The notes beneath the pieces were generated by a model, which worked only from the letters and a program-made list of their open reading frames with translations, made no database searches and was not told where the DNA came from. Positions 11,218-63,348 of a DNA stretch of 64,000 nucleotides are shown here, in pieces. The stretch is from Lama guanicoe (Eukaryota). The first letter of the stretch is position 1. Each line of letters begins with the position of its first letter. Location of the stretch: the NCBI GenBank assembly GCA_013239625.1, contig MU053304.1:1240001-1304000 (forward strand), written 5' to 3'. Position numbers and translations under genes: made by a program.

Positions 11218-12794
<1,577 letters not shown>

Positions 12795-22795: not shown

Positions 22796-25028
22796 CCTGT
22801 ACAGTCTACAATATGTATTATCTAGTTCTTTATAACACATTTGCCCATCCTAACGTGTCTCCAGAAAGGTCAGATCTAGGTGCTGTTCTGTGCTATATGA
22901 TGCTGAGCCCCCTAGGATGCCAGCCTGACTGTGGGGACTTCACGTGACCCCCACAGCTAGCAAAAACACGCCAGAGTGGAAAACAGTGTTATGCAGGAAA
23001 AGCAACCCAGGGGCTCAGAATTTAAAAACAAGCGTTGGTCTTTGTTTGAACAAAGGAGGAGGAAATGCTTACAGCCAGAGGCTGGGGACCATCGTGCCCA
23101 AATTCCTTAACACATCAGCTTACACATTCTGTTTCACACGCTGTCAAGAGAAATGAAGAGATTACCTGGGTATTCTTTTAGTGCAGTGATGGTTATGCAA
23201 CTGTGACCTTTCATTGCCCCAGATACTTAATAACTCTTAAGAGGTAGACGTTAACTTGCAGAACACTGATAATAACACAAATGATTCTTATCCGAAAGCT
23301 TTGTAAATAATTCTTATCCATAGTAATGCAAATGCATTTTGTCTGGGAAAGATGAAATTGATTACTATCTGGTAGGAAAAATGACTTCAGAGTTTAATGC
23401 CCAGGAGACTATTAACCAGTTTTGCATATATTAGCAAATTCATTTCAGCATTTCTTTGACTTTGACATAAATCTCAGTTCTTCAAAATCTCTTGTGAACT
23501 AGTTTTAACATCTTTCTGGTTCTCTCATTAATTAATAAATCAAATAAAACCATTGACACATGTTCATTTTATATGTATATAAGAGTTTTACATTCTTTCA
23601 GAAATTACAGATATGAATACAGCCTATTCCCCCTTCCATGGGTTGCTTTGGGGTCAGCTGAGAAGGAAGAATCTCATGACACACAGGTAAGGAAGATGAG
23701 ACCTAGTGATACTCAGCAAGGGATGGGACAGTGGAACACTGTGGTCCACAATGAACACTCTCCAGAAAGCTCATGTGGAAAGAATACTGATAACCAATAT
23801 CTGAAAGGGGTCACGGTATTTGTCCAGCAAAACACTGAGGATTTATAAAGCATTCTTAATATTTGTACCGGGGAGAAACATATTAAGGATATTTTTGTTA
23901 CTTGGGGTTTTAACTTTCAGGACTTGTGACATGAAGTTCTTTTGTTTATGGAGGCTGTTTCTCAAGGCTGGGAAACACTTAACTCCAGGCACCACCGGTT
24001 GCACCTGCTCCAGATGCCAGCCTGGCCCTAGCAGATGCTCTGTGTAGATATTATTCCCTGAGGCCATGATGCCGTCTCAGTTATAGTCGTCAGTTTGGAA
24101 AGACCCACCGTGTTCTCTGTGCGGGACTTCTCATGAATGCACAAAACGTTCGGTTCTGTCTGGCAACCGCACATTTCACAGAGGGAGTTCCTATCACTAA
24201 GGAGACCCTTCTTTACATCACCTCTGGTGTGAAGCCACATCCCCACCACACATCATCTCCAGAGGAACAGTCATATGCTGCACATTAACTCATGCTAGAC
24301 GGTACTTACAATGCTGCAGGAATGAAGCTCTCCCTGCAAGATGGTGTCCACTTATAACCGTCCACTTCTCGTCTCCCCTTAAAAGACAACTCTTAGCTGT
24401 GGTTATGCTCACCTTAATATCCAGATCTTCCTTCTCTGTTCAAGCCACTGTTGAGACTCCGCTTGCAGAGTAGAAAATCTGTAGGGCAAGTCGGTGGAAG
24501 TCCACAGGCTGTGTGCTGAGGTGGAGGCTGGCCAGATGAGCATCCAGGCGCCTTCTCACTGCTCTGCAGCTTCAGATGCCCTGGTTCACTGCACAAGTCC
24601 TCTGAGGGGAGCTCACCTCAGAGCATTCCCAGCCGGGGGTTGGGGGGGAATCCAGAGGACAGGGATGCTTTGTCTTTGGGGGCTTCTAAGCCCAATGAAG
24701 GTCTCGGGGACGTAGGAAGATGGACAGCTCAGAAAGGGGATGGAAAAGAGTCAAAAACACAGGGCATCCTCATAATTTGAACTAAGACTTCTCTGTCCAG
24801 GTCATACATCTGCTTACAGGCGTATGAACTGCCCAACAGGAAAATCATTTCATGCACTAATCCCTCATACTATTTCACTCACTTTTATTTAGAAGGAAAT
24901 AATGTCACTTCTAACCTTGATTTTGAGCTATTTGGTTAGAGGGTTAAGAAATGAGTTCTACTTTTCTAAGATAGACTACAGGATGAATCAGGAGACGGAA
25001 AAGTTCAAGACATTTCTGAAGGGGATTG

Positions 25029-25062
25029 TGCAATAGCAACATTCAGCCACCAGAGGGCAGTG
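25029..25062 (+). promoter_or_regulatory. CTCF site (core plus upstream motif)
   Basis: Core cagCCACCAGAGGGCAGtg preceded by TGCAATAGC at the spacing typical of the ZF9-11 upstream motif. Confidence 0.75.
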
Positions 25063-25169
25063 TCGACTTCCTAGGGGTTCTGGAGAGAGGAAAGAGGTGC
25101 CGAGAGAAAGGAGGGTAAATGCAAATTTAAAGTAAAATTTCACCTGCTAAAATTAGAATTAAAAAACAA

Positions 25170-25710
25170 GCCCGGTCGTAGGGTCTTTCCTTTCATTCTG
25201 CTGTGCGCTCCTGACGAAAGCGGACGCCCGCCGAAGACTGCAGCAGGTTCCTGGAAGACCCCGACATCAGGTCGCTGACGGGGGAGGTCTTGCGGGGCGG
25301 GGTTGCCGGGTGGGTTAGGGAGAGGACGGGTGCCTAGGGCTGCAGAGGGCGGAGGGAAGCCCTTGAAGGGGCTCAGGGCAGCGGCTGTTTACCAGCTGGG
25401 TGGAAAGCGTGTTTGATAAGGTGCATTGCTTTGGTGGGAAGTCTTGGCTGACGTCTGCCCTGCAAGGGGGAGGGCGCTCTGGGAGAGCGCGCGGCTGGCT
25501 CCGCGCCGGCTGAGGTTGTGCCGGCAGCTGCCTTCCGGTAAGCGCGCTCGGGCGGCGCGCACGCAGGAGAGCGAAGCCGGGGCTGGCGGGGAGGCCCCCG
25601 CCCGGCTCCCAGCCGGTGTTTGCTGGGAGCAAACCGCCGGTGCCGGACCCCTTATTCCCCAAGCGCCGCTTCAGTGGCTCCTCCTGGGACTCTTGCAGGG
25701 ACCGCATCAG
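25170..25710 (+). promoter_or_regulatory. CpG-island promoter and probable non-coding exon 1 of the plus-strand HSR gene
   Basis: Dense CpGs, GC box (ggggcgggg), TGACGT half-CRE, IRF-like ctttcctttc, strong donor CCG|GTAAGC at 25537/25538; link to the gene is inferred. Confidence 0.6.
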
Positions 25711-26179
25711 ATCAGGATTCCTTCCTTTGGGGATGAACGAGGTGCCAGGGACAGGAATCCCTCCTCTGCCTGAGTTTCTTCACTTTTGTTTCCTGTTAAA
25801 CCATGAAGTTCAACTGGCCACACCTAGTCACCCCAAGGTGTGGCGGCATTTAGGAAGGAGAGGAGCAGACCCCCCAAGGCTTGCTTCAAGCCGACGGCCA
25901 ATGCTTTCCGCCACTGCTTGTCTGTAGATAGTGGAAGCCAGCGGATTTAGAAACTCAGATGCGGCTCTGAGATGGTTCTGATATTTGTCATGACATTAGT
26001 GACCTGTAAGTTCTCACTCTTTCCTAGGCTGAGAATTTGCCCTCTCCCTCCCCCACTCCCCCATTTACTTTTCTGTCCCAGAATACGCTCAGCTCTAGTG
26101 TCCTGGCTTTCCAGAAAGCACCAAGTGACAACTCAGTTGGAATAATTAACATAAAGCTCCAGATTCCAATAATATGATT

Positions 26180-35749: not shown

Positions 35750-37045
35750 TTTTTTTACTTTTTTTTTTTTAGTCTCTCACTATTCTTTTTTTTTTTTTAC
35801 TTTTTTTTTTCTTTTTTTTTTCATACACTTTTGTTTTTTTTTCCTTTTTTTTTCTATTTTGGTGTTTTTGGATTTTTTTTTTTTTNNNNNNNNNNNNNNN
35901 NNNNNNNNNNNNNNNNNNNNNNNNNNNNNNNNNNNNNNNNNNNNNNNNNNNNNNNNNNNNNNNNNNNNNNNNNNNNNNNNNNNNNNNNNNNNNNNNNNNN
36001 NNNNNNNNNNNNNNNNNNNNNNNNNNNNNNNNNNNNNNNNNNNNNNNNNNNNNNNNNNNNNNNNNNNNNNNNNNNNNNNNNNNNNNNNNNNNNNNNNNNN
36101 NNNNNNNNNNNNNNNNNNNNNNNNNNNNNNNNNNNNNNNNNNNNNNNNNNNNNNNNNNNNNNNNNNNNNNNNNNNNNNNNNNNNNNNNNNNNNNNNNNNN
36201 NNNNNNNNNNNNNNNNNNNNNNNNNNNNNNNNNNNNNNNNNNNNNNNNNNNNNNNNNNNNNNNNNNNNNNNNNNNNNNNNNNNNNNNNNNNNNNNNNNNN
36301 NNNNNNNNNNNNNNNNNNNNNNNNNNNNNNNNNNNNNNNNNNNNNNNNNNNNNNNNNNNNNNNNNNNNNNNNNNNNNNNNNNNNNNNNNNNNNNNNNNNN
36401 NNNNNNNNNNNNNNNNNNNNNNNNNNNNNNNNNNNNNNNNNNNNNNNNNNNNNNNNNNNNNNNNNNNNNNNNNNNNNNNNNNNNNNNNNNNNNNNNNNNN
36501 NNNNNNNNNNNNNNNNNNNNNNNNNNNNNNNNNNNNNNNNNNNNNNNNNNNNNNNNNNNNNNNNNNNNNNNNNNNNNNNNNNNNNNNNNNNNNNNNNNNN
36601 NNNNNNNNNNNNNNNNNNNNNNNNNNNNNNNNNNNNNNNNNNNNNNNNNNNNNNNNNNNNNNNNNNNNNNNNNNNNNNNNNNNNNNNNNNNNNNNNNNNN
36701 NNNNNNNNNNNNNNNNNNNNNNNNNNNNNNNNNNNNNNNNNNNNNNNNNNNNNNNNNNNNNNNNNNNNNNNNNNNNNNNNNNNNNNNNNNNNNNNNNNNN
36801 NNNNNNNNNNNNNNNNNNNNNNNNNNNNNNNNNNNNNNNNNNNNNNNNNNNNNNNNNNNNNNNNNNNNNNNNNNNNNNTAGGAGAAAATTTTTCAAATGT
36901 ATGTCAGATAATGTTTTGCCTATGTTTTCTTCTAGGAGTGGTATTGTATCTTGTCTTATGTTTAAGTCTTTAATCCATTTTGAGTTGATTTTTGTATATG
37001 GTGTAAGGGAGTGTTCTAGCTTCATTGTTTTACATGCTGCTGTCC
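35750..37045 (-). mobile_element. Young L1 3' portion interrupted by an assembly gap
   Basis: Long T-rich tail on the left of the gap; ORF2 peptide [28 protein letters not shown] on the right. Confidence 0.85.
35886..36878. other. Assembly gap (993 N)
   Basis: N run. Confidence 1.
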
Positions 37046-37427: not shown

Positions 37428-37581
37428 GATGCTTCCAGTTCAGAAGAAGGAGATTTTCCATGAGATCCTTTTGAATCACTTTAAGGAAAATAAGGTGGAG
37501 ATAACAAGTGCAATAACAAAGCCATTTCCCTTCCTTGAGAGCCTCAGAGATAGCTCCTTCATCACTGAAAAAATCTATAGT
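37428..37581 (+). CDS. SP100/SP140-family paralog, HSR/CARD exon 1 (ATG at 37429): MLPVQKKEIFHEILLNHFKENKVEITSAITKPFPFLESLRDSSFITEKIYS
   Basis: Acceptor tttttccttAG, donor GTGAGT; matches the HSR motif F.ENKVEI..AI..PFPFL..LRD...I. Confidence 0.92.
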
Positions 37582-38487
37582 GTGAGTAAAGTTTATTATA
37601 TTTCCCCATGGTAACCCATCCCCATGCTGATTTGTATTTGACATCCTAAATTCAAAATTTAATGTATCACTAACTGGCTGAGAGTCCTTTTATGCTTTTC
37701 TTGGGGAGACCCTTTTAAGTTAGTTAATCACCCTGTAAGCTCAAGGGTGACAGAGAAAGCACATATCACTTCTATTCCGATCAAAGCCCTTCTCTTCTGT
37801 GACACATGTTAGAGTGGGGATGGGTGGTAATGGTGATATGGCTGGATTGCAACATATGCTTTGTAAGATGTATAGCAATTTATACAACATAACAAAATTA
37901 AACTAAATTAAAATAATAAAATTGGGGCAGTATTTCATTATAATACCCATTTATGGTAAATGAAATCCCCAGGGAATTTGTGCTAGTATAAATCAAATTT
38001 CTGCCTTTTTTTTGTCTCCTCCAGAGTGTTTAAACTTTGTTAGGTGGTTCTGGAGTCTTGGAATTCCAGTAAATTAGATCAGTGGACCCTCCTGGGGAAA
38101 CAGAGAAGGAAACCATCTCCGCACTGCGTGATTGTGCAGGTCCCTGTGTGCTCCTCGTGGCAGGGGCAGGACCATCTCCCTACATCCTGGAGCCCTTTCA
38201 GGGCTTCTCACACCTGGAGGGTAGGCAGTGGTTGCTGGGAAATCCACAGAATTGCTATAAGCTTCATTCTTGAAACAGCCTAGGCAGGATGAAAATTCAA
38301 AAAGTCAAGAGGAAGGGTTATTTTAAGCAGCTGATCAAGTATTTAAGAAGTTCTAAAATATTGCATGAAAAATACTAGTCTATCTACATTGAGCAAGTAG
38401 AATTAGTGCTCTGTGCAGTTCCTTTCTAGATGTCTCTTTAACTCTGAAACTATTATTTTATATTTTTTCCATTGCACCTTTTAAAAG

Positions 38488-38656
38488 GATTCTCAAGAAG
38501 CCTGTAGAAACTTGGTTCCTGTAGGGAAAGTGATATATCATATTCTCTGTCACCTTGAGAAGACGTTTGATAAATCACTTCTACGAGCCCTGTTCAGCAG
38601 GGTCCATCTGAAGGAGTATCCTGACTTAATTCCAATTCATAGAAGCTTTGAAAATG
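38488..38656 (+). CDS. HSR/CARD exon 2: [56 protein letters not shown]
   Basis: AG/GT bounded, 169 nt, phase 0 to 1; resembles human SP100 [27 protein letters not shown]...EYPDLIHIYKGFEN. Confidence 0.93.
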
Positions 38657-45924: not shown

Positions 45925-48420
45925 TTAATTGAAAGTTTTCCTCTAAGATCAGGAACAAGACAAGGGTACTCACTCTCACCACTTCTATTCGACATAGTCC
46001 TGGAATTCCTAATTAGAGCAATCAGACAAGAAAAAGAGATAAAAAAGCACTCAAATTGGAAAGGGAGAAGGAGAATTGTATCTGTTTGCAAATGACATGG
46101 TCTTATATACAAAAATCCTCAAGAGTCTACAAAAAAAAAAACCTATTAGAACTAATAAACAAATTCAGTAAAGTGGCAAGATACAAAATCAACATACAAA
46201 AATCAGTTCCGTTTCTATACACTAACAATGAAATATATGAAAAAGAAATAAAGAGAACAATCCCATTCACAATATCATCAAAAACAATAAAATGCTTAGG
46301 AATAAATTTAACCAAGGAGGTGAAAGAGCTGTGCACTGAAAACTACAAGACTTTGATGAAAGAAATTGAAGAAGACACAAACAAATGGAAAGATATCCTG
46401 AGTTCATGGATTGGGAGAATTAATATTGTTAAAATGTCCATACTACCCAAAGCCATCTATAGGTTCAGTGCAATCCTTATCAAAATTCCAATGACATTTT
46501 CCACACAAATAGAAAAAAAAATTATAAAATTTGTATATATAAAAGATCCTGGCTAGACAGAGAAATCCTGAGAAAGAACAAAGCTAGAAGCATCACACTT
46601 CCTGGTTTAAAACTATATTATAAAGCTATAGTATTCAAAACAGTGTGGTACTAAACATATAAATAGACACAGAGACTGATGGAACAGAACTGAGAGCCAG
46701 AAATAAGCCCTCACATATGCAGTCAACTAATATTTGACAAGAGAGCCAAGAATACTCAGTGGGGAAGAGTTTCTTTAATAAATGGTGTTGAGAACACTGG
46801 ATAATCCAAAGCAGAAGGATAAAATTGGACCCCTTATCTTACACCACTCACAAAAACTAACTTGAAATGGGTTAAAGACTTAAATGTCAAGACCTGAAAC
46901 TGTAAAACTTTTAGAAGAAAACATAGGGGGAAAACTCAAAACTCTTTAACATTGGTCTTGGCAATGAGTTTTTGGATATGACACCTAAAACACAAGCAAC
47001 AAAAACAAAAATAACAAGTAGGCTATCTCATTAAAATGGCCATACTGCCCAAAGCAATCTACAGATTTAATGTGATCCCTATCAAATCACCCAGGACCCT
47101 CTTCACAGAACTAGAATAAAAAATCATAAAAGCTATATGGAATTATAAAAGACCCACAATAGTCAAAGTAATACTAAAGAAAAAGAACAAAGCTGGAGGA
47201 ATAACCATCCCAGACTTCAGACAATACTACAAAGCTACAGTAAACAAAACAGGGTGGTACTGGCACAAAAACAGACACATAGATCAATGGAACAGAATAG
47301 AGAGCCTACAAATAAACCCACAGACCTACAGTCAATTAATCTTTGGCAAAGGAGGCAAAAATATACAATGGAGAAAAGACAGTCTTTTCAGCAAGTGGTG
47401 CTGGGAAAACTGGACAGACCCATGCAGAACACTTCCTCACACATACACAAAAATAAACTCAAAATGGCTTAAGGACTTAAACATAAGACACTATAAACCT
47501 CCTAGAAGAAAACATAGACAAAACATTCTCTGACATACAAATAGCCAACAGGCACATGAAAGAAGCTCAACATCGCTAGTTATTAGAGAAATGCAAATCA
47601 AAGCCACAATGAGGTATCACCTTGCATTGGTCAGAATGGCCATCATCAAAAAGTCTACAAATAAATGCTGGAGAGGGCATGGAGAAAAGTTAACCCTCCT
47701 ATACGGTTGGTGAAAATGAAAATTAGTGCAGCCACTATGGAAAACATTATGGAGTTTCCTTAAAAATATTAAAAAATAAGCTACCCTTTTATCCAGCAAT
47801 CCCACTTCTGGGTATATATTCAGAAAAAATAAAAACTCTGATTCAAAAAGATACATGCACCCTAAGGTTTATAACAAAACTATTCACAATAGCCAATTCA
47901 AGTGCCCATCAACAGATGATTGGCTTAAGAAGATGTGGCATACATATGTAATGAGATACTACTTAGCCATCAAAGAGAATGAAATATGCCATTTGCAGCA
48001 ACATGGATGGACCTAGAGAATATTATGCTTATTGAAATAAATCAGACAGAAAAAGACAAACACTAAATGATATCACTTACATGTGGAATCTAAAAAATAA
48101 TGCAGATGAATCTAAATACAAAACAGAAACAGACTCACAGACATAGAAAACAAACTTATGGTTACCAAAGGGGAGAGGGAAGGGAGGAGGGATAAATTAG
48201 GAGTATGGGGTCAACAGATACAAAATAACTACACATAAAACAGGCAAGCAACAAGGATTTACTGTGTAGCACAGGGAATTATACTAATATGTTGTAATAA
48301 CCTATAATCTAATCTAATCTATTCTAATCTAATCTAATCTAATCTAATCTAATCTAATCACTTTGCTGGACACCTGAAACTAACACAACATTGTAAATCA
48401 ACTGTATTTCAATTTTTAAA
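45925..48420 (+). mobile_element. Composite L1 (two ORF2 segments with a repeated region at about 47030, plus 3'UTR containing (CTAAT)n at about 48305-48359)
   Basis: ORF2 peptide [22 protein letters not shown]...[20 protein letters not shown]; 3' end 'acacaacattgtaaatcaactgtatttcaatttttaaaaaag'. Confidence 0.92.
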
Positions 48421-49357
48421 AAAGATTCAGATTGCTTATCACTTCCATAGACAGCAAAGCAAAAAGAGCGAAGGTGATAGCTCCCCATGTCCCAGTGGGT
48501 AGCACCAATGCCAAGGGGGATGTGGATGACATATGATGAAGCAAGAGTGACGGTACACATTCGTGTTACCTCATGCCTCTTCAGAGCTTGGAATATGAGG
48601 AAAGCATGTCATGACAGAAGGCAGTGGGTGGGAAATAGCCTTGTAGCAGCTCCTCACAAGCCTCCCAGGCTTTCATGTTCTGGAGGATGATAGGGCGTTC
48701 TCAAGACTTAGATTAGATCAGCTGCTGGTAGGTCTTGCCTATGTGGACATGCAAGTTCCCCAGGATGCCATGGCAGAGCCATTCCCCAACAGGACCAAGG
48801 ACTGTCAGAGGTTTGAGTGCCCAGGTGAGGCATGCTTCTATCAGCTGTACCAAGTATGATTCTGCGAATTGAAAATTGGAAATGCTACGCATCCACTACG
48901 GGCTTCCTGATGCCACTGGGGATGAGGCCACAAGCAATGCTATCCAGTATCCAGTAAGGTAACCAGCGACTAAAATATATAAATCACAGTAGCTTTCTAT
49001 AACAGGCAAAACTCAGTAACAAAATATATTGGGAAAAGGTCACATTCACAATAACAAAAAAAAAGTGTTAAATACCTGAGAGTAAAATAAGAAATGATTA
49101 AATCCTGTGGAGAGGAGAAAAGAAAAGAAAACTTAAAAGCCTAATAAAAGATTCAAGTAAAGCACATAACACGATCTTTTATAGAAAGACATGGTATTTT
49201 CTTTTGTAAATTTCACCCTAAATTATTCAATAAGAGTCTCTGACAATTTTAAATTTCATTTAGAAAAATAAGTTAGCAGGAATGTCAACAAAAAACAAGT
49301 TTGAAAAAGAAGTGTGATATGTTATTTGCACAGCAATGGGCCTAATGGTCAGTGGGG

Positions 49358-49531
49358 TCACAGGCATGATCTCTTGTCGCTTCTGGAGTCTCTGAAGGGG
49401 GACCTAGAAAGAGGGTAGGGCTCAAACTGAGTACTGTTTGTGCTTATTTCCTGGATGGCAAAAATGTCTGTGAAATCATTCTCAGATCTGGCCTCTAGAT
49501 GAAGTCCCAGCCTGATGAATTTCTCCTTGTC
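49358..49531 (-). pseudogene. SP100: SP100-like terminal bromodomain exon (DKEKFIRLGLHLEARSENDFTDIFAIQEIS...*), unreachable in frame
   Basis: tttttcAG acceptor; resembles human SP100C EDKFTRLGIQVQDIFEKNFRNIFAIQETS. Confidence 0.8.
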
Positions 49532-50695
49532 CTGAAAAAGCAAAGACAAAAACAATAATAGCTATTGCCAGTGGGCTTAGGTTGCCAACGAGCTTGACTC
49601 CCAATGTTCCAGATAACCTGGAGTTTCATTTTAGACTACCCCAAATGCTAAGCGAAAATTAATCCAGTTGAGAGTAGCTTATGTTCTTTGATTGCTGGAT
49701 CATTTTTCTTCATCTTGAATACAGAGGAGCAAAAATAGTACTATACTGCATTTTAATTCTTCATGAGAAATTTATTGATTAATTTTTTAAAATCTAGTTA
49801 TTTGATTTTTGAACACAGCACATATTCCTTGTAGTACTCTGATTGTGCAGAAATGTCTAAGGCAAATTCATGGTGTTTTCTTTTATCCTTCATTCCCATC
49901 CCTTAAGGTAGTCCTTGTTAACTTTATTATACACCACAAAGAAATTCAAATGTAAAGAAATTCAAGATTTTGAAATATGAGAAATGTGATTTGGTATCTT
50001 TCTTTAGAGATGAGACACACAAGTTGCCTTTAAAATGTGCTTCTAGCAGATGAGAGAACTGGCCCCACTTCTCCACGAGCACCGAGGCCGTAAACCTTCT
50101 GCTTGTAAGAACTCTACCATGCTCTGAATCCGGAGTGCAGTTCTAGAACCACTGGAAATAGGAAGATGCCCAGGTGTGTGTGTGGGTCCTGTCCACACAT
50201 TCCTGAGGGCCTGGATGTCAGAGGGCAGGAGCACGAACTGCACAGGAACATACTCTGTATCTCAACACCCAGTCTCCCCAGAATGGTCCCTGAGTCTGGG
50301 CTGCGTGGGGTCAGGAGCCCAGGCCCAGGGCAGGGACTTTTGAGGTACCCACAGAACTGTCCAGATCCAGTGGAAAAAAAAAAGAAGAAAGAAAGAACAT
50401 CACTTCCATTTCCTGTGGAAGAGACTAGGTCTGCAGTTCACTGTTCTCTGTGGGCAAACCGTCTATCTAGAAGGAGTAAACTCTGAGGTCCTCGGGCAAC
50501 GTTTTCAGTGATACCTCTGGCCTCCTGTTATTATCTGCCCCACCATAGCCCAGAGGGCTTTTAAAATACTGCCAGAATTTTTACTTTGTGGACTTGCCAG
50601 ATGATGAGGGAAACTGCAACTTTTACTTGCTTACAAGAAGGTGAAAGACAAAGCAACTTAATCGAGAGAAAATAGAAGCAGGGAGAACCACTTAC

Positions 50696-50838
50696 ACTGG
50701 AATACTGTCTGTAGTTCTGGAAGACGAGACACATGTCCTGCACAAATCCCTCCACCTGGCAGTAGGTATATCTTCCTCAACTTTTTCTTGAGTTTGTTTA
50801 ACCACATGGGCTTCTTCGGCCCGAGATGCCTCTCTACT
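50696..50838 (-). pseudogene. SP100: SP100-like bromodomain exon with two frameshifts
   Basis: SREASR / PKKPMWLNKLKKKL / TYCQVEGFVQDMCLVFQNYRQYS lie in different frames; 143 nt between intact AG and GTAAGT. Confidence 0.85.
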
Positions 50839-50904
50839 CTGTTGACAAAGTGCCAAAGGGCAGGCTATTAGAGGGTTCCAAGTCTACCTTCTGTAGACTC
50901 CCAC

Positions 50905-51275
50905 TGTTATGGACTGAGCACTTATGTTCCTCAAATTCATATGGTGAAATCGTCACCCCTACTGTGATGGTATCAGGAAGTGGGACCTTTTGGAGATAAT
51001 TAGGTCATGAGGGTGGAGCCCTCATGGATGAGATTAGTGCCCTTGTAAGAGACTTCAGAGAACTCCCTCCCTCCCTTGTGAGGATAAAAAGAAAAGACAG
51101 CTCTCTGCAACCTGGAAGAGAGCCCTCACTAGGACCTGATCCTGCTAGCACCCTGATCTTGGACTTCCAGCCCCTAGAACTGTGAGCAATAAATTCCTGT
51201 TGTTTAAGCCACCCAGACTATTGCAATTTGTTATAGCAGCTGAGCTTTGAAGGGCTGACTGAGCTGACTAAGACA
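50905..51275 (+). mobile_element. MLT1A-like MaLR LTR
   Basis: 'tgttatggactga...aggtcatgagggtggagccctcatggatgagattagtgcccttgtaaga...gactaagaca'. Confidence 0.9.
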
Positions 51276-51372
51276 TTCACCAACAAGACAAAGATAATGG
51301 CAACTTGTACCCTCTGGACTCATAACACAAATTTGACAGATGCCAGTTTTGGGTTTTGTTGCTCTTACTTAT

Positions 51373-51446
51373 ATAATGTGGTTCTGAGGCAAAAAAGGGG
51401 TTTTTTTTGGAGAGCAATATAACTTCAAGAGGAGAAACTCACATTT
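51373..51446 (-). pseudogene. SP100: SP100-like bromodomain exon (KCEFLLLKLYCSPK / FFASEPHY) with a +2 frameshift and lost donor
   Basis: An A8C4 run shifts the frame; the ancestral donor reads ATAAGT; using the next GT (51367-51368) ends the frame in TAA. Confidence 0.85.
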
Positions 51447-51718
51447 CTGCAAAAGAGAGGAAATTTTAAGTGAAAAGCAGCTTGGAGAGAATGAGCCTTA
51501 TGTATGCTCAGATAGATGCACAACTCCCAAACTTGCAGATTGTGAAACAGACACCAAGTTTCTGTGGCGTAGAAATGTTGGTGTCAGGTCATGTGATCAG
51601 AGCACAGCAAGGGACAGCAGTTTGCCTTGGGCACCTTTCCTCCTGCCCCCTGCAAGGTGGTGCTGCTTCTCTTGTGTAAACAGAAAGGAGGAGGCTTCAG
51701 GTTTGCATTTCAACTCAC

Positions 51719-51839
51719 CAGCTGCTCCTCAGGCAGCATCTTCCTCTTCAGGACCTCAGATTCCTGATGACATGGTTGGCTTTCTGAGTACCTTTCCTGA
51801 AGAGCCTTTATCTTGCAGAAGTTGCAACTCCATGGGTTC
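51719..51839 (-). pseudogene. SP100: SP100-like PHD C-terminal/linker exon (NPWSCNFCKIKALQERYSESQPCHQESEVLKRKMLPEEQL); open but downstream of stops
   Basis: cAG / GTGAGT, 121 nt, phase 2 to 0; closest to SP100 [40 protein letters not shown]. Confidence 0.88.
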
Positions 51840-52439
51840 CTGAGAGGTTGGACATAAGGTCAGCAAAGGGAGGTTCTCTGTGAATCAACCTTTGTGTCTA
51901 TAGCCACTGGAGTGCTCTGCTCAGATTGTAGTTTCCAGCTGTACCCAACTTCTCTCTGACATCCCTCAGCACTAGAGCCTCATTTGGGCTCAAATGCCAA
52001 AGACAACCCTCCCATCAATAGCAGTAGAAGGCTGACAGTCTAAGTGAGGTGTCACAGTGGGTAAAGACTCTCATTCACCTCAAAACTTAGGGTTCCCATC
52101 TGAGCCACTGTGATTTTGGTAATGACTCCTGCCTGCTAGAATCGCGGGTTCCAACCTTGGAAATTAGTACCTTAAGCACTGGAGTCTTGGTCCTCAAAGA
52201 GTCATCAGATCACATTAAAAATCAGAAGACCAGCTCTTTCTCTCAACTTAGCTGAATAAGCACAGGGCATAAGCCACAGGCATCCTTTCCTCTGGCCCTG
52301 CCAACTCTACATCTAGAATCTGTGCTGCAGAAACTTCTTGAAAAGGAAATCTACCAACAGAGTGCCAGATATCTTCCATTTGCTCCTAGATTCATTCTCT
52401 CCTCTCCTCCCCCAGGCTCTGTACTGCGGACCTCTTGAC

Positions 52440-52965
52440 AGTTAGATGGATACAATGATCCACCCTAGAGATATCATTTAGCCTCTCTCCTTGGCCACCC
52501 CAGTGGTTGCTCAGGGGGCCCATTACAAAGTGCCCATGGTGCAGGGCTGGAGACTACACATAAGCTCAACGACTTGTCTTCTGCCTCTGCAGACTGTCTA
52601 ACTGCAGAAATTTATGCTGAATCCTTGAGTGTGCACATTCTCTGGTTGCTACATGGGAGCAGGTGAATTATACTAGATTCCTCCCATTATGGAGAGCCAT
52701 GCTGTATTCTATAGGGACAGACAGAATCCTGGTAGAGATCATCCTTCCTGGCTAGAGCGAGTCTGCTCACACCACCACTTATAGAGTGCCTTGTCAATCT
52801 ATGTGTTATCTCACATATCATCACCTCTGACCAAAGATATATCTTACAGCCAAGAAAATGCAGCAGTGGACTAATACCTACAGAATTCAAGGGTCTTATG
52901 TACCCCGTGATTCAGGGTCAACTAACTTGATAGACTGCTGTGATTGCCTTCTGAAAGCTCATCAC
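52440..52965 (+). mobile_element. ERVL internal (integrase) fossil
   Basis: Degenerate integrase motifs (ITSDQRYILTAKKMQQW-like, equivalent to SDQGTHFTA.EV.QW). Confidence 0.6.
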
Positions 52966-53230
52966 AGCCCCAGCTTTGTCAGCTTTGGTGTGTTCCCATA
53001 GCAGGTGGTGTCTGCTTTAAACCAGCAGCTAATGTAGGGAGTCATCACCTCATCAAAGTGCATGGGTCTGGGAACCAAGTGAGGGAGGTGGGGGGGGTCA
53101 CTCCTTTGTTTATTATACCTAAAAACAACTTGAAGACTTTTCTCCTCATTAATCTACTGCTGCTAGCTTTGTTAAACAGCTCTGTCCCTATTTCTGGATC
53201 CCCATACTTAAGGACTCTGCTTCTCAATCA

Positions 53231-53446
<216 letters not shown>

Positions 53447-53604
53447 CTAGAAAAAGAGATAACACAGACATCACTGGGATCAGTGAGACCCTGGAAGGTT
53501 GACACACTGGGACTCTAGAACACATGGCTTTTGCTTGTACCAAGGTGACACTTGTAAATTTATCTCCTCAAACTATTAAGGAACAACACTGAATGGAGAT
53601 TTCA

Positions 53605-55111
53605 TTTATTTTTATTTTTAAAAGTTAAAAATTAATTTATTTCTTATTGATGAATAGTCAATTACAATGTGTCAATCCGGTGTACAGCATAATGTCCCAG
53701 TAATACATATACATACATATATTCATTTTCATACTCTTTTCATTAAAGTTTATTACAAGATATTGAATATAGTCCCCTGTCCTATACAGAAGAAATTTGT
53801 TTTTTACCTATTTTTATACATAGTGGTTAATATTTGCAAATCTCAAACTCCCAAATTTATCCCTTTCCACCCTCTTTCCCCTCGGTAACCATAAGATTGT
53901 TTACTATGTCTGAGAATCTGTTTCTGTTTTGTAGATGAGTTCATTCATGTCTTCTTTTTTCCTTTTTTAGATTCCATGTATGAATGATATCATACAGTAT
54001 ATTTCTTTCTCTTTTTGGCTTAACTCATGTAGAAAATGACATTCTCCAGATCTATCCATGTTGTAGCAAATAACATTCTTTAACTCTTTTTTGGCTGAGT
54101 AGTATTCCATTGTATAAATATACCACATCTTCTTTATCCAGTCATCTGCTGATGAACATTTAGGCTGTTTCCGTGTCTTGGCTATCGTATATAGTGTTGC
54201 TATGAACATTCAGGTGCATGTATCTTTTCGAATTAGAGTTCCCTCTGGATATATGCCCAAGAATGCGACTGCTGGATCATACAGAAACTTTATTTTTAGT
54301 TTTTTGAGGAATCTCCATACTGTTTTCCATAATGGCTACACCAAACTGTATTCCTACCAACAGAGTAGGAGGGTTCCCATTTCTCCATAGCCTCTCCAGA
54401 ATTTATCATTTGTGGAAGGGATAGCCTGGGATTTCAAAATTTGTAGATACTGACAGGCATATTCAGAATAGATAGACAAGATTGTACTCTATAGCACAGG
54501 GAAATATATACAAGATCTTGTGGTAGCTCACAGCGAAAAAACATGTGACAATGAATATATGTATATTCATGTGTAACTGAAAAATTGTGCTGTACACTGG
54601 AATTTGACACAACATTGTAAAATGACTGTAACTCAATAAAAAATTGTTAAAAAAATGATAGCCATTCTGACTGGTGTGAGGTGATACCTCATTGTATTTT
54701 TGATTTGCATTTCTCTGATAATCGAGCATTTTTTCAAATGCCTATTGGCCATTTGTATGTCTTCATTGGAGAATTGCTTGTTCAGGTCTTCTGCCCATTT
54801 TTGGATTGGTTTTTTGTTGTTGTTGTTGTTATCAAGTTGTATGAGCTGTTTATATATTCTAGAAATTAAACCTTTGCCAGTTGTATCATTTGCAAATATT
54901 TTCTCCCATTCCATAGATTGTCATTTTGTTTTGCTTATGGTTTCCTTTGCTGTGAGAGTGGGCATCCTTGTTTTGTTCCAGATTTTAGTGGGAAAGCTTT
55001 CAGCTTTTCACCATTGAGTATTATGCTGGCTGTGGGTTTGTCATAAATAGTTTTTACTGTATTGAGATATGTTCCCTCTGTACCCACTTTGGTAAGAGTT
55101 TTTATCATAAG
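53605..55111 (-). mobile_element. L1 3' portion with TSD, containing an oppositely oriented L1 3' end at about 54416-54655
   Basis: TSD tgaatggagatttca (53590-53604) and tgagtggagatttca (55112-55126). Confidence 0.88.
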
Positions 55112-57459
55112 TGAGTGGAGATTTCAGAAGACATTCTGGTCTGCAGTGATGTTCAGGAGGAAGTGGCTGTGTGTTACACCTTTAAAGTTTTCTTTATGAA
55201 GCCAGAGATTCTGACACAGGAAGGCTAACAACAACAACAAAAAAGGAATAAATTAAAGATAGTCTGAGAAATTTATTATTCTGTAGGCAAAACCTGGTTC
55301 AGGAATACAATGTCTTATCTAGTTGTCTACATTGCATCATCTATATTGACTCATTGAAGAGTGATTACTGAGAATTTAATATGAGAGAATAAACTTCTGA
55401 GATACCATTGCATCCCATTTTCTTGTCCATAAGTTCTCTGTGAGTTGAAGGACCTGAGGAGGAGTTCCTGGACAATGGATTCCATGCCTGGAGTGCCCCT
55501 GGGCCTGTGACAGAGCCTCTGGGTTGGAAAGACCATGGGCACAGGTGACCAGATGAATGCCAGGGAGGACAGAGCTCTTTGGCTCTGGGAGCCTGAAATA
55601 GCCTGTCCCCATGATGTAGCTTAGCACATAAGATGTGGAGGTGCCATCTCTCAAAGTCCAGAGAGAATGGGAGCAGCAGCCACTGGAGTTGAAGGCCAAG
55701 GCCCTAACTTCATTTTCTGAGCCTGTGGAAGACCTGGTTCTTTGTCTTATATAAGGAAGATGACAGGATTCACAAAATTGACTGATGCTGGATTTTTCAC
55801 CAATCTCATTATGTGGGACTTTTAGCCAGATTTAATTTCATTTAGTGAACTTAAAAATTTGACAGTGTTTTTGTGTCTAATTATTGTCGAATAAAAAACT
55901 CAAATTAGAAAAATAGAATTTATTGACCAAAATAAGAATTGGTCAAGGAATGAGCCCACTGGTGGGCAAAGAAAATCACATTTTCCCTCTTCTTTTGTGA
56001 TAATCTCTGTGGCAGTAACATGTGAATCCCTGTATACTACAATTTCTTTGTATGAGGGTGATGTGCCTATGCTGGAAAAATGCCCAGAGGATGGGCACCC
56101 GGCTTCTCTCCTGGGCTACCTGAGCAGAAAGAGAACCGTATGGGGGGGGGAACATTTCGTCCAATGGGTAGCAGCTCTGCATCTAGATGAATATATTCTT
56201 TCTACACAATAGGATGGAAGAAGGAATTCACATCCTTGTGTGACGATCTAGGCACAAAATGATGCATAGACTTAGGGGCTGGCCCATCCAGTGATGGGTA
56301 GCTGGGACTCTGGTGGGTGGTGAGGAAGTGGGGAGGTGGCAGGGAGTGCCACTCTACCTCTTCTTTCTAGAAACACACTTAAAGCTTTATTTGATGACAC
56401 TCCACTCTCTTGGATTGTTTTTCTAACACCCTGCCTCTTTCTTTTTAGGTTCCTCACTTGGAATGTTGGAATTTTGGAGGGCTCTGTCTTATGTCCCCTT
56501 CTATGTCCCTTTACTCTCCTAGATGACCACAACTACTCCCATCACCACACTTACCACACTTTGTCCCTAGGCTTTAAGACCTGTGTCTCTAGTCTTCTTT
56601 CAAGTCTCCAAGCACCCAAATTGTACTTTCCATCATCTCCAATTAGATGTCTTTCATCATGAATAAAGTTCATCTTGCCTCAAACCACATTCCTCATCTT
56701 CCTGTCTTGAATTGGCTCCTCTTTTAGTGCTCCACCATCTCACTAAGCACCCCACCATTCCACCCGGGAACCTGAAAGTGAACATGGAGTCCTCCCTTTT
56801 CCCGTCCCAGATATCCAATTATTACCAGTCCTGCTGATTCCAATTTTTAAATATCTAATCTCATTCTCAGTGATTCTGTGAGATCCACTGCTACAAGAAT
56901 GCAGGGCCTTTAATTATAAAACAATATTATTAGCCAAAGAAAAACGGTCTGCTCTTTGGGTTCCAAATCGTAACAGTCAGAATATCATTTCTGAGCCCAG
57001 TGAGCTGAGGTGAATTGCAACATACCTCAATTTGTAAATTCTTTTCATGTATAAATTCAATATAAAAAGAAGAGACACAAAAGCTGCACATAGGAGGAAA
57101 TTCTAGGCTGCAAGATGTATCTTGTCCATGTGCTCCCTTTCAATAGGAAAACCTAAGGAATGGCCTGCCAGGGACATCCTTGGGGACACCCCCTAGTGGG
57201 CTTGAGTTGCCCTGGTATGGGGCCATGTAACTGTTTTTCTGTTTTGTCACAACAGATGAGACTCATGGATGCTGACCACTATTTTTAGGTTACTAGGTCA
57301 GAGTTCCTGAACCATCAGTCTATAAGTACACTGCGAGTGGGCCTGAGGAAGAAAGAATGATGCATGCAAATTCACTGTTTGAAGCTCCATTGTCTAGAAA
57401 GCCTGCAAACTTGGTGCATGTCTCTTTAATCTTTTTAGCAAGAAATTTGCCCTTTCATT

Positions 57460-57940
57460 CAACAGTGGTTCTACACCTGTTGTACAGTAGAATCACCTGG
57501 TGAGCTTTAAGAAAATTCTGATGCCTAGGACCCCATCCTCAGAGATCTTGACTCAGTTAGTCTGGGTTGAGTGTGTGTTTTAAAGCAGTGTGTTTTAAAT
57601 GTTCCCCAGATGGTTTTAATGTGCAGTCATTAGTTGAGACCTTTGGCTTCTTAAAGTAGTGGTCTCTGGACCAGCAAAAGCAGCATTACCTGGAACTTTT
57701 TTGAAATGCGAATTCTTGGGCTCCATCCCTCACTTACTGAATCAGAAGCCCATGAGATTCTGATGGACACCACAGATTGTACAGCGTGGGTCTACAGTGA
57801 CCCACACATTTTGTCATGCATTAAAACCACCAGGGGAGTTTTGGAAAATCTTGGTCCTCAGACAGCATCTTAGAACAATAACATCAGAACCTCTGAGGGT
57901 AAGTAATTGCAATATGCAGCCAAGAGTGGGAGCTCAAGGT
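57460..57940. mobile_element. Cluster of MER5-type hAT fossils
   Basis: 'agaatcacctggtgagcttt', 'ggaccagcaaaagcagcattacctgg', 'acttactgaatcagaa'. Confidence 0.7.
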
Positions 57941-58438
57941 CTAGAGGAACTTCTCCCAGCAAGGGCTGGGAGTTATAGGCAGTCATTATCACCTACAAGC
58001 TCTGTCACAAGAAAGGTTATGAAGAGGGGGAGAACATCCTATCTGGAAGAGTTGCCTTTTCATCTTCATAGAGGGCTTGGCCATGTTGGAAGAAAAACCC
58101 TCTGTGTCCACCTCAGTCATCAAAAAAGCTACGCAGACCTCAGAGATGAGAGCTATTCCACTACTCAAGGGTCCCATCTCCAGCAGAGGAACAGAAGCAG
58201 TGTGAATGTATCTAGAGCTTGCTGGGCAATGCATTTGCTAGAAAACCAGAGGGCATGGAAACCCTTATATTTCCCTCTCTGTTGGTGCCATGTATTAGTC
58301 CAGCTACACAACATTATGTAGTGAGAGGCACCTCCTGCAGTTGTGCAAAAAGTGACTGCCTGAAATGTCCTTATTACAATGAAAGCAATCAAAGTGATAT
58401 TTAGCTTAGAGAGAGGCAGTAGTTCAAGTGATAATTAC

Positions 58439-58477
58439 CTTTTATCTTTTTATTGACGGATCTGGTAAAAATCCTCT
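58439..58477 (-). CDS. SP100: SP100-like post-SAND exon RGFLPDPSIKR* with in-frame TAA (58442-58444)
   Basis: ttttcAG / GTAATT, 39 nt; equivalent to human NKFLPEPPSTRKK. Confidence 0.85.
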
Positions 58478-60711: not shown

Positions 60712-60854
60712 CTCAATCAAGTATTTTAGGGGCCATCCACCGCAGCGCACACTCATCTTCCAGTTCTTGGATGCTGCGCGTTTTCCTTCAACTTCAAATT
60801 CCCTGAGGGTGAACCGCCTTCCATCCTTACTCTGTACGCACTTCTCGGAGACTC
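60712..60854 (-). CDS. SP100: SAND domain exon: GVSEKCVQSKDGRRFTLREFEVEGKRAASKNWKMSVRCGGWPLKYLIE
   Basis: cAG / GTATTC, 143 nt, intact KNWK DNA-binding motif. Confidence 0.93.
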
Positions 60855-61961: not shown

Positions 61962-62066
61962 CTTTTCTCATTTTCTCCTTATTTAAAACCCCTTCAACCT
62001 CACCGCAAGTCACGGGAAGTTCAGGAAGTCGAAAATCCATATTTGCTTCTCTGGGAATCTTTGAAC
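61962..62066 (-). CDS. SP100: SAND N-terminal exon: [35 protein letters not shown]
   Basis: gcAG / GTGGGT, 105 nt; resembles SP100 [35 protein letters not shown]. Confidence 0.93.
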
Positions 62067-63300: not shown

Positions 63301-63348
63301 CTCTTCTTCTGCCTCTTTTCAGAGGCCCAGAGTTGACGGTTTTTCTCC
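63301..63348 (-). CDS. SP100: Basic (NLS-like) exon: RKTVNSGPLKRGRRR
   Basis: ttAG / GTAAAA, 48 nt, phase 1-1; resembles SP100 RKANTRPLKRRRKR. Confidence 0.85.

Follow-up and report, generated by a model that had tools for sequence, protein, structure and literature searches.

Camelid SP100 ends after its SAND domain and has very probably lost the PHD-bromodomain isoform SP100C

The 64,000-nucleotide stretch of Lama guanicoe DNA analyzed here (the window) was found to carry the SP100 gene of this South American camelid, coded on the minus strand (Table 1). The first three exons of the table were joined by canonical splicing into a single open frame, in which 108 of 109 residues were identical to alpaca SP100, in agreement with the earlier note, which had described these exons, including the KNWK segment, as intact. 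The SAND domain retained the K-[DN]-W-K motif, and its second exon matched the alpaca model at 100% and the Bactrian model at 98%. The HSR/CARD region lies outside the window; the alpaca model that matches the window exons carries a Pfam HSR domain (E=2.4e-42), and only 3 of 103 HSR residues differ between alpaca and camels. Complete models of 545 aa with HSR and SAND were found for four camelid species (alpaca, dromedary, Bactrian and wild camel).

Table 1. Features of the SP100 locus in the window (positions of the window; strand as coded).
Feature	Position	Strand	Remarks
SP100 exon before SAND (basic stretch), 48 nt, live	63301..63348	-	identical to alpaca SP100 model
SAND exon 1, live, canonical AG/GT	61962..62066	-	single residue difference from alpaca SP100 model
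SAND exon 2 with KNWK motif, live	60712..60854	-	Pfam SAND E=3.5e-16
Last coding exon of camelid SP100	58439..58477	-	TAA replaces Lys codon; end point of 10/10 SAND-complete camelid models
Vestigial SP100B-type read-through end (V-I-I-T-stop), now behind TAA	58424..58438	-	same four terminal residues in blue and minke whale models
Alternative exon of RefSeq X2 models in four camelids, runs into L1	55084..55224	-	ATG at 55108, donor after 55084
L1 fragment, internally deleted, on SP100 strand, poly(A) signals at 53641-53610	53610..55120 (ends approximate)	-	72-78% to + strand L1 at 47532-48308
Short inverted L1 3' end nested inside L1 fragment	about 54660-54420		
PHD exon 1	53327..53446	-	opens with TGA; coding part intact but end out of phase; Pfam PHD E=5.4e-6
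PHD exon 2 and linker	51719..51839	-	fully intact, both splice sites good; 40/40 residues identical to Camelus models
Bromodomain exon 1	51373..51446	-	+2 in A8C4, donor GT>AT at 51372-51371
Bromodomain exon 2	50696..50838	-	-2 and +1 frameshifts
Last SP100C exon, open	49358..49531	-	end unlike Camelus models and outgroups

Behind the SAND exons, a TAA at 58444-58442 was found as codon 12 of a 39-nt exon, 3 nt from the exon donor, at a position where orthologues encode Lys. All ten SAND-complete models of alpaca, dromedary, Bactrian and wild camel ended at this codon, and PHD or bromodomain was present in 0 of 20 camelid SP100 models. Likewise, no camelid protein with SAND plus PHD-bromodomain was detected among the matches listed (120 of 715) or among 101 further matches. 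Lesions were judged against intact orthologue proteins, the Camelus evidence being predicted proteins and not DNA; these models show that the Lys-to-stop change ends the predicted SP100 protein in both camelid tribes. Since the exon with the TAA is common to the B and C isoforms, the B-type end is trimmed too. Human SP100 has the same exon order and domains, and its B and C forms are splice choices. Camelid SP100 ends after SAND like human SP100B (PMC7882683), but differs from the human gene in that the DNA itself precludes C and the stop comes five residues before the B-type end.

The seven lesions listed in the earlier note were all located on the minus strand where it had placed them. In PHD exon 1, TGA is the first codon past the acceptor at 53446 (Pro in most orthologues), and a second AG provides an acceptor at 53442. 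The phase-2 donor that this exon requires would fall at 116 nt; the closest GT, at 53326, is phase 0 at 120 nt, and the following phase-2 GT is weak and 83 nt beyond, a pattern that would be the same for a 4-nt insertion as for a decayed donor 4 nt upstream. In bromodomain exon 1, the A8C4 run at 51408-51397 produces the +2 shift, and the GT that lies 4 nt downstream of the AT donor restores the frame but takes in a TAA. Substitutions in the window bromodomain (I>V, F>S) occupy columns that are invariant in 10/10 outgroups, and the end of the last SP100C exon suggests a further indel near the old stop. The window splice chain as it stands meets two stops before the PHD and is out of frame after it; no single open frame runs from SAND through PHD to bromodomain, and the five downstream PHD-bromodomain exons are unreadable as one frame in the window. 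A small pre-PHD exon of horse, rhino, bat, cat, pangolin and macaque left no remnant in the window intron, and was not counted as a camelid lesion because most cetartiodactyl models also do without it.

The same exons were found to be annotated under another name in Old World camels. Three Camelus species have a separate RefSeq 'nuclear body protein SP140-like protein' that starts at an ATG in the L1 (XP_045373337.1, XP_032335069.1 and XP_031307003.1) and comprises the same exons as window 53442-49400. RefSeq marks two of these, from C. ferus and C. dromedarius, as LOW QUALITY, and both bypass the beginning of bromodomain exon 2; the Bactrian model (131 aa) bears no such flag and skips both broken bromodomain exons. 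As modelled in C. ferus, the dead exons find their best match in the solved PHD-bromodomain of human SP100C (216 bits vs 199 for SP140). We interpret these 'SP140-like' models as SP100's orphaned tail under a gene label of its own, the kind of mis-annotation, as SP140L, that the earlier note had predicted. In the models of C. ferus and C. dromedarius, I-S-K is read across the dead donor of bromodomain exon 1, so the GT>AT change appears common to both tribes. By contrast, the Camelus models have the ancestral K-S-P at the A8C4 site and an in-frame PHD junction, so that of the seven lesions at least one and probably two would be confined to Lamini.

Decay of the module was uneven. The earlier note had described the PHD-bromodomain module as a whole as eroded; this holds for the bromodomain exons, which appear broken in both tribes, but not for the PHD coding sequence. 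The eight PHD zinc ligands (C4-H-C3, read off the orthologue alignment) are all kept, and between window and Camelus 1/77 PHD residues differ vs 9/93 in the bromodomain (Fisher p=0.023). Zebu and argali, in which the module is functional, differ at 1/78 PHD and 13/104 bromodomain residues. The camelid PHD branch was the shortest of eight cetartiodactyl tips (0.09-0.11 vs 0.15-0.58); the camelid bromodomain branch (0.33 vs 0.22-0.45 in six other cetartiodactyls) was not clearly long, with the Lamini branch slightly inflated by one position created by the +1 shift. Camelid PHD exons thus look as constrained as in lineages with a working PHD, which counts against the reading that SP100C was lost.

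Taken together, these results make it very probable that the camelid SP100 orthologue still encodes a 545-aa, SP100B-like product of HSR/CARD, linker and SAND as well as shorter forms, and that SP100C is no longer possible. The earlier note's view of a lineage-specific loss within a live gene is upheld by the models of four camelids and by close outgroups that keep the module; the TAA and GT>AT changes, mirrored in protein models of other camelid species, are not due to chance. From these comparisons we infer loss of the module on the stem of the camelids. The bromodomain would probably have gone first and the PHD late, because the PHD exons barely diverged and are in frame in Camelus and neither tribe has a working bromodomain donor; lesions at the PHD end and probably at A8C4 would have followed on the Lamini side.

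A different order, given loss, is possible though we consider it the less likely one: an L1 may have come first, diverting splicing and polyadenylation before the PHD exon and so releasing the module, with the TAA and frameshifts as later debris. An L1 fragment does lie between SAND and PHD and is common to both tribes. It is assigned to LINE-1 from a weak Pfam RVT_1 match (E=0.03, below cut-off), its resemblance to other copies within the window and its terminal AATAAA cluster, and carries what we take to be an ORF2 motif. It is on the SP100 strand, has three AATAAA signals 165-195 nt upstream of the PHD acceptor, and receives the X2 models of four species, which splice into an exon running into it. 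Truncation of immune genes by TE-derived poly(A) signals is a known route (PMC13709765); in IL18R1-Short and IFNAR2-S, the lost domains are preceded by an exon and poly(A) signals that come from an intronic retroelement (PMC13709765). Camelid SP100 differs from these in that the full-length form is gone, and its L1 signals are candidates from sequence. Against this order, six other poly(A)-like hexamers are present between the TAA and the 55224 exon (eight are listed before 55224, two just upstream of it included), the Camelus models imply that splicing can get past the L1, and the L1 and the TAA are both older than the split, so that living species cannot order them.

An improbable reading is gene fission: SP100 stops, the L1 supplies a start exon, and through the 53442 acceptor the PHD was detached, not killed, living on in Old World camels as a small protein of its own that was lost secondarily in South American camelids. 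The ATG, donor and acceptor are all in the window, the RefSeq models have the PHD junction in frame in all three Camelus species, with the Bactrian one not low quality, and the kept zinc ligands, the single difference between tribes and the short PHD branch are as expected of a working domain. However, the background was low too: non-coding-derived frames (3/55, p=0.31) and linker (16/329, p=0.22) did not differ significantly from the PHD, and a neutral simulation, post hoc as a test, gave P(at most 1)=0.07 at 2.5% and 0.03 at 3% divergence. The PHD exons are expected to mutate slowly because they hold only 1 CpG. The ATG is about 120 nt behind the SP100 stop and may share an exon with the X2 end, no promoter was found, and the window frame breaks between zinc ligands 6 and 7, at the out-of-phase junction. 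The bromodomain is, moreover, reported to be critical for the fold of the SP100C PHD (PMC7882683). If fission were true, a stand-alone PHD could serve as a free H3-tail reader or decoy, and, more broadly, viral antagonists would have driven several losses of the SP100 reader module, in camelids, rorquals, Kogia and mouse.

It is very unlikely that an intact SP100 lies elsewhere and that this locus is a whole-gene pseudogene or a paralogue (SP140L, for example), although the 5' exons are beyond the window and RefSeq labels the fragments 'SP140-like'. A unitary pseudogene was rejected on the intact 545-aa models in four camelid species, in which the HSR is conserved. The window PHD-bromodomain exons clustered with cetartiodactyl SP100 and away from SP140 (clade of 8 cetartiodactyl rows, support 100/99) in an SP tree that left out artiodactyl SP110. 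SP100 models of Rice's whale splice into the counterpart of window 24711-24643, which ties the locus together, and downstream DNA of the window is shared with that whale SP100 locus. An SP100 orthologue is expected at the end of the SP cluster, adjoining CAB39; in a Pfam scan of 60 of the 226 long frames in 1-35880, one family and no CAB39 domain were detected. SP140L, reported as a hybrid specific to higher primates with 3' exons from SP140 (PMC4548144), was rejected since the window 3' exons group with SP100.

Least probable of all is that the lesions are sequencing or assembly errors in an intact module. A8C4 is a homopolymer with ancestral K-S-P in Camelus, models of Camelus do not show the PHD-end lesion, and the word share in six DNA runs not marked as a possible source of the assembly (0.93-0.96) is too coarse to confirm single sites. 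The stop common to the tribes nevertheless largely refutes this reading: protein models of four species mirror the TAA and those of two Camelus species, from separate assemblies, mirror GT>AT, and the earlier note had likewise doubted that all were errors. Even if one or two Lamini-side lesions are errors or polymorphisms, the isoform is not rescued. Six RNA or RNA-like runs shared 0.07-0.16 of words, which counts neither way.

We compared these results to other lineages. PHD and bromodomain are both kept in SP100 of pig, warthog, hippo, zebu, argali, right whale, sperm whale and narwhal; thus, in the comparison with pig, cattle and whale that the earlier note had proposed, pig, hippo, ruminants and most whales retain the module. 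Among the fetched models, a PHD was found in 0/28 of rorquals, 0/16 of Kogia, 5/6 of right whale and 7/8 of sperm whale. Rorquals and Kogia are PHD-less like camelids, but are known from gene models only and have no stop at the camelid position. Musk deer (0/3 models with PHD, minor isoforms only) shows the limit of counting models, and no loss is claimed for it. In PMC8248984, PHD and bromodomain are listed for all human SP members and in mouse for SP140 only, which implies the same module loss in mouse Sp100, a separate lineage known here from print; beaver, mole-rat and vole models retain both domains. Loss of SP100C in camelids is a known kind of event, with a precedent in mouse and probable parallels in whales, and is noteworthy but less surprising than the earlier note implied.

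Under the 50-nt rule for nonsense-mediated decay, camelid transcripts ending within the intron or the L1-containing exon would escape because the stop is 3 nt from the donor, and those spliced onward through the old exons would be degraded. The remaining protein would retain oligomerisation, nuclear-body targeting and SAND DNA binding, and would lose the reading of H3K4me0/H3K9me3 tails, to which SP100C binds (PMC7882683). SP100 restricts many DNA viruses and SP100C is its interferon-favoured isoform (PMC7882683). In one assay, SP100 CARD function was independent of PHD, BRD and SAND (PMC13649554). On this evidence, the annotation of the Camelus 'SP140-like' genes is corrected to SP100's orphaned tail, and camelids would be a natural knockout of SP100C, fixed for more than 11 million years, that can reveal what the reader module contributes. 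Counting mouse and the candidate whales, the loss seems to have recurred, and thus drift and escape from viral antagonists become testable as its causes.

The loss of the PHD-bromodomain module from SP100 is real and camelid-wide; domain loss of this kind is known, and the camelid case is new. All seven lesions described in the earlier note were found in the window sequence: TAA after SAND, TGA opening the first PHD exon, a phase mismatch at the PHD end, a +2 shift (A8C4) and a dead donor (GT>AT) in the first bromodomain exon, and -2 and +1 shifts in the second. Splicing the window chain as it stands gave a stop at TAA, a second stop at TGA and loss of frame past the sixth zinc ligand. The TAA replaces a Lys in an exon shared by isoforms B and C; behind it, V-I-I-T-stop can still be read in the intron, and blue and minke whale models end in this way. 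The last SP100C exon ends unlike its counterparts in Camelus and the outgroups, which by its sequence may be an eighth lesion, though one of little weight. From region 49300-53560, 458 words were sampled, of which 0.93-0.98 were present in 14 DNA or unlabelled runs with four organism labels; eight runs are marked as a possible source, while the remaining six come from five studies and contain 0.93-0.96. These read words show the region to be generally present in these animals, single bases being below their resolution. Searches by title or abstract start found no report that camelid or whale SP100 has lost domains (subscription papers and supplementary gene-loss tables may record it), nor did literature naming SP100 plus a camelid, among the matches listed; RefSeq models the short camelid protein without comment.

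The upstream exons are those of a live SP100. The four exons from 63348 are canonically spliced in a single frame, and an alternative exon differs at 0/32 residues from alpaca and 2/32 from camels. These matches indicate a South American camelid as the source of the window. In a PHD-bromodomain tree of 24 rows the dead exons grouped with pig, hippo, zebu and whale SP100 (100/99), apart from SP140; SP140L is restricted to higher primates according to the accessible text of PMC4548144. HSR, linker and SAND make up the longest SP100 frame in camelids.

Coordinates of SP100 and neighbouring features in the window
Feature	Position	Strand	Remark
SP100 KNWK exon	60854-60712	minus	100% to alpaca, 98% to Bactrian camel SP100
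SP100, four exons	63348 to 58439	minus	108/109 residues as in P0001 (alpaca SP100 model)
L1, internally deleted	~55120-53610	SP100 strand	between stop exon and PHD
Two adjoining L1 3' fragments	45930-48400	+	separate both speckled-protein genes
Second speckled-protein gene	37430-38656	+	candidate exons to ~45900; tail to tail with SP100
Assembly gap	35886-36878		993 N; ~550 bases upstream of that gene's first HSR exon
CpG-island-like kilobase	25001-26000		sole one in window; GC 0.58, o/e 0.67
Counterpart of Rice's whale SP100 terminal exon	24643-24711	minus	78%; 34 kb past SAND
Intronless open frame	11412-12527	+	372 codons, Pfam Peptidase_M24, no stop

In the plus-strand gene, two HSR exons are open (Pfam E=2.5e-16 and 9.7e-21) and reach no more than 68% against the proteins fetched. 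Two candidate middle exons have stops in some frames, and the final exon has an ending like that of the short SP100 isoform; no KNWK and no PHD were found on this strand of the window. The mouse counterpart of this gene may be A630001G21Rik, and the CpG-island-like kilobase is its possible promoter. The intronless frame looks like a PA2G4/EBP1 retrocopy without its N-terminus.

Sharing of lesions among camelids was judged on predicted proteins, not DNA. A whole SAND was present in 10 of 20 fetched camelid SP100 models, all 10 (from alpaca, dromedary, Bactrian and wild camel) stopping at TAA, and PHD or bromodomain in none of the 20; the main camelid protein cluster had 15 of its 21 members among the matches listed. 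Searching with the second PHD exon retrieved separate 'SP140-like' models, read here as SP100 tail, of 131 aa in C. bactrianus and 208 aa in C. ferus and C. dromedarius, the latter two flagged LOW QUALITY; models so flagged may carry silent corrections. Both long models read I-S-K across the bromodomain donor, thus GT>AT is common to both tribes. The PHD exons are joined in frame in 3/3 Camelus models, placing the PHD-end lesion on the Lamini side, and the A8C4 shift probably arose there too, since both long models read K-S-P at that site.

The L1 behind the stop exon contains a nested inverted 3' end, and its tail has three AATAAA. In four species the RefSeq X2 models are predicted to join 58439 to an exon at 55224 running into this L1, and the Camelus 'SP140-like' models to start at its ATG (55108), exit at 55084 and go on into the PHD exon by way of a second AG (53442), beyond the TGA position. 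Use of the L1 by both kinds of model in several camelids indicates that it is common to both tribes.

Because lesions are shared in these predicted proteins, the loss is dated from them to before the Camelini-Lamini split and after divergence from other even-toed ungulates. The tribes split approximately 16-17 million years ago. Accessible parts of the literature give more than 11 million years for this split (PMC13751797) and 55-60 million for that of camelids from other even-toed ungulates (PMC6389616).

Both domains are present in models of pig, warthog, hippo, zebu, argali, right whale, narwhal and sperm whale, with PHD in 5/6 right whale, 7/8 sperm whale, 4/4 narwhal and beluga and 9/13 pig models. 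No PHD was detected in 28 rorqual models among those listed (five species; SAND in 20) or in 16 of Kogia; the models included first-numbered isoforms of blue whale, Rice's whale, humpback and Kogia, minke being represented by other isoforms, and the main rorqual cluster had 15 of its 23 members among the matches listed. These gene models make rorquals and Kogia no more than candidates for PHD loss. Musk deer had no PHD in three models, minor isoforms only. Terminal exon usage in Rice's whale hints that the PHD-bromodomain exons may be deleted in rorquals. Rice's whale (P0240) and humpback (P0247) SP100 have lost the conserved Trp following SAND R-C-G-G, and SAND may be eroding in rorquals. Where the bromodomain would be, SP100 isoforms of sperm whale (P0064), musk deer (P0120) and sheep (P0124) share a C-terminus of unrelated sequence that resembles a Tigger transposase end. 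Mouse Sp100 lacks both domains, by implication of the accessible text of PMC8248984.

Decay of the module was uneven. Compared to C. ferus, 1/77 residues differed in the PHD exons and 9/93 in the bromodomain (both via the window; p=0.023), against 5/94 in SAND, 3/103 in HSR and 16/329 in the linker (via P0001). The camelid PHD branch was the shortest of the cetartiodactyls tested. Although this branch and the 1/77 would suit a stand-alone PHD protein retained in camels, the bromodomain is reportedly critical to the PHD fold (accessible text of PMC7882683), the PHD exons are CpG-poor, and their count is not significantly below that of the linker or of non-coding-derived frames (3/55); we consider such a protein very improbable. 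Neutral simulation of the PHD count gave 0.03-0.15 at 2-3% divergence, and PHD is likewise slower than the bromodomain in lineages with a working module. Late release of the PHD, together with chance, would account most simply for the uneven decay.

By the 50-nt rule of NMD, transcripts spliced through the old exons would be targets, and those terminating soon past the stop exon would be stable. SP100 SAND binds unmethylated CpG DNA, PHD-bromodomain reads H3K4me0 and H3K9me3, and interferon favours SP100C, as stated in the accessible text of PMC7882683; that of PMC13649554 describes CARD-driven toxicity as independent of all reader domains. By default, the camelid loss would reflect drift once need for the module relaxed; possibly, selection instead shed a virus-targeted surface.
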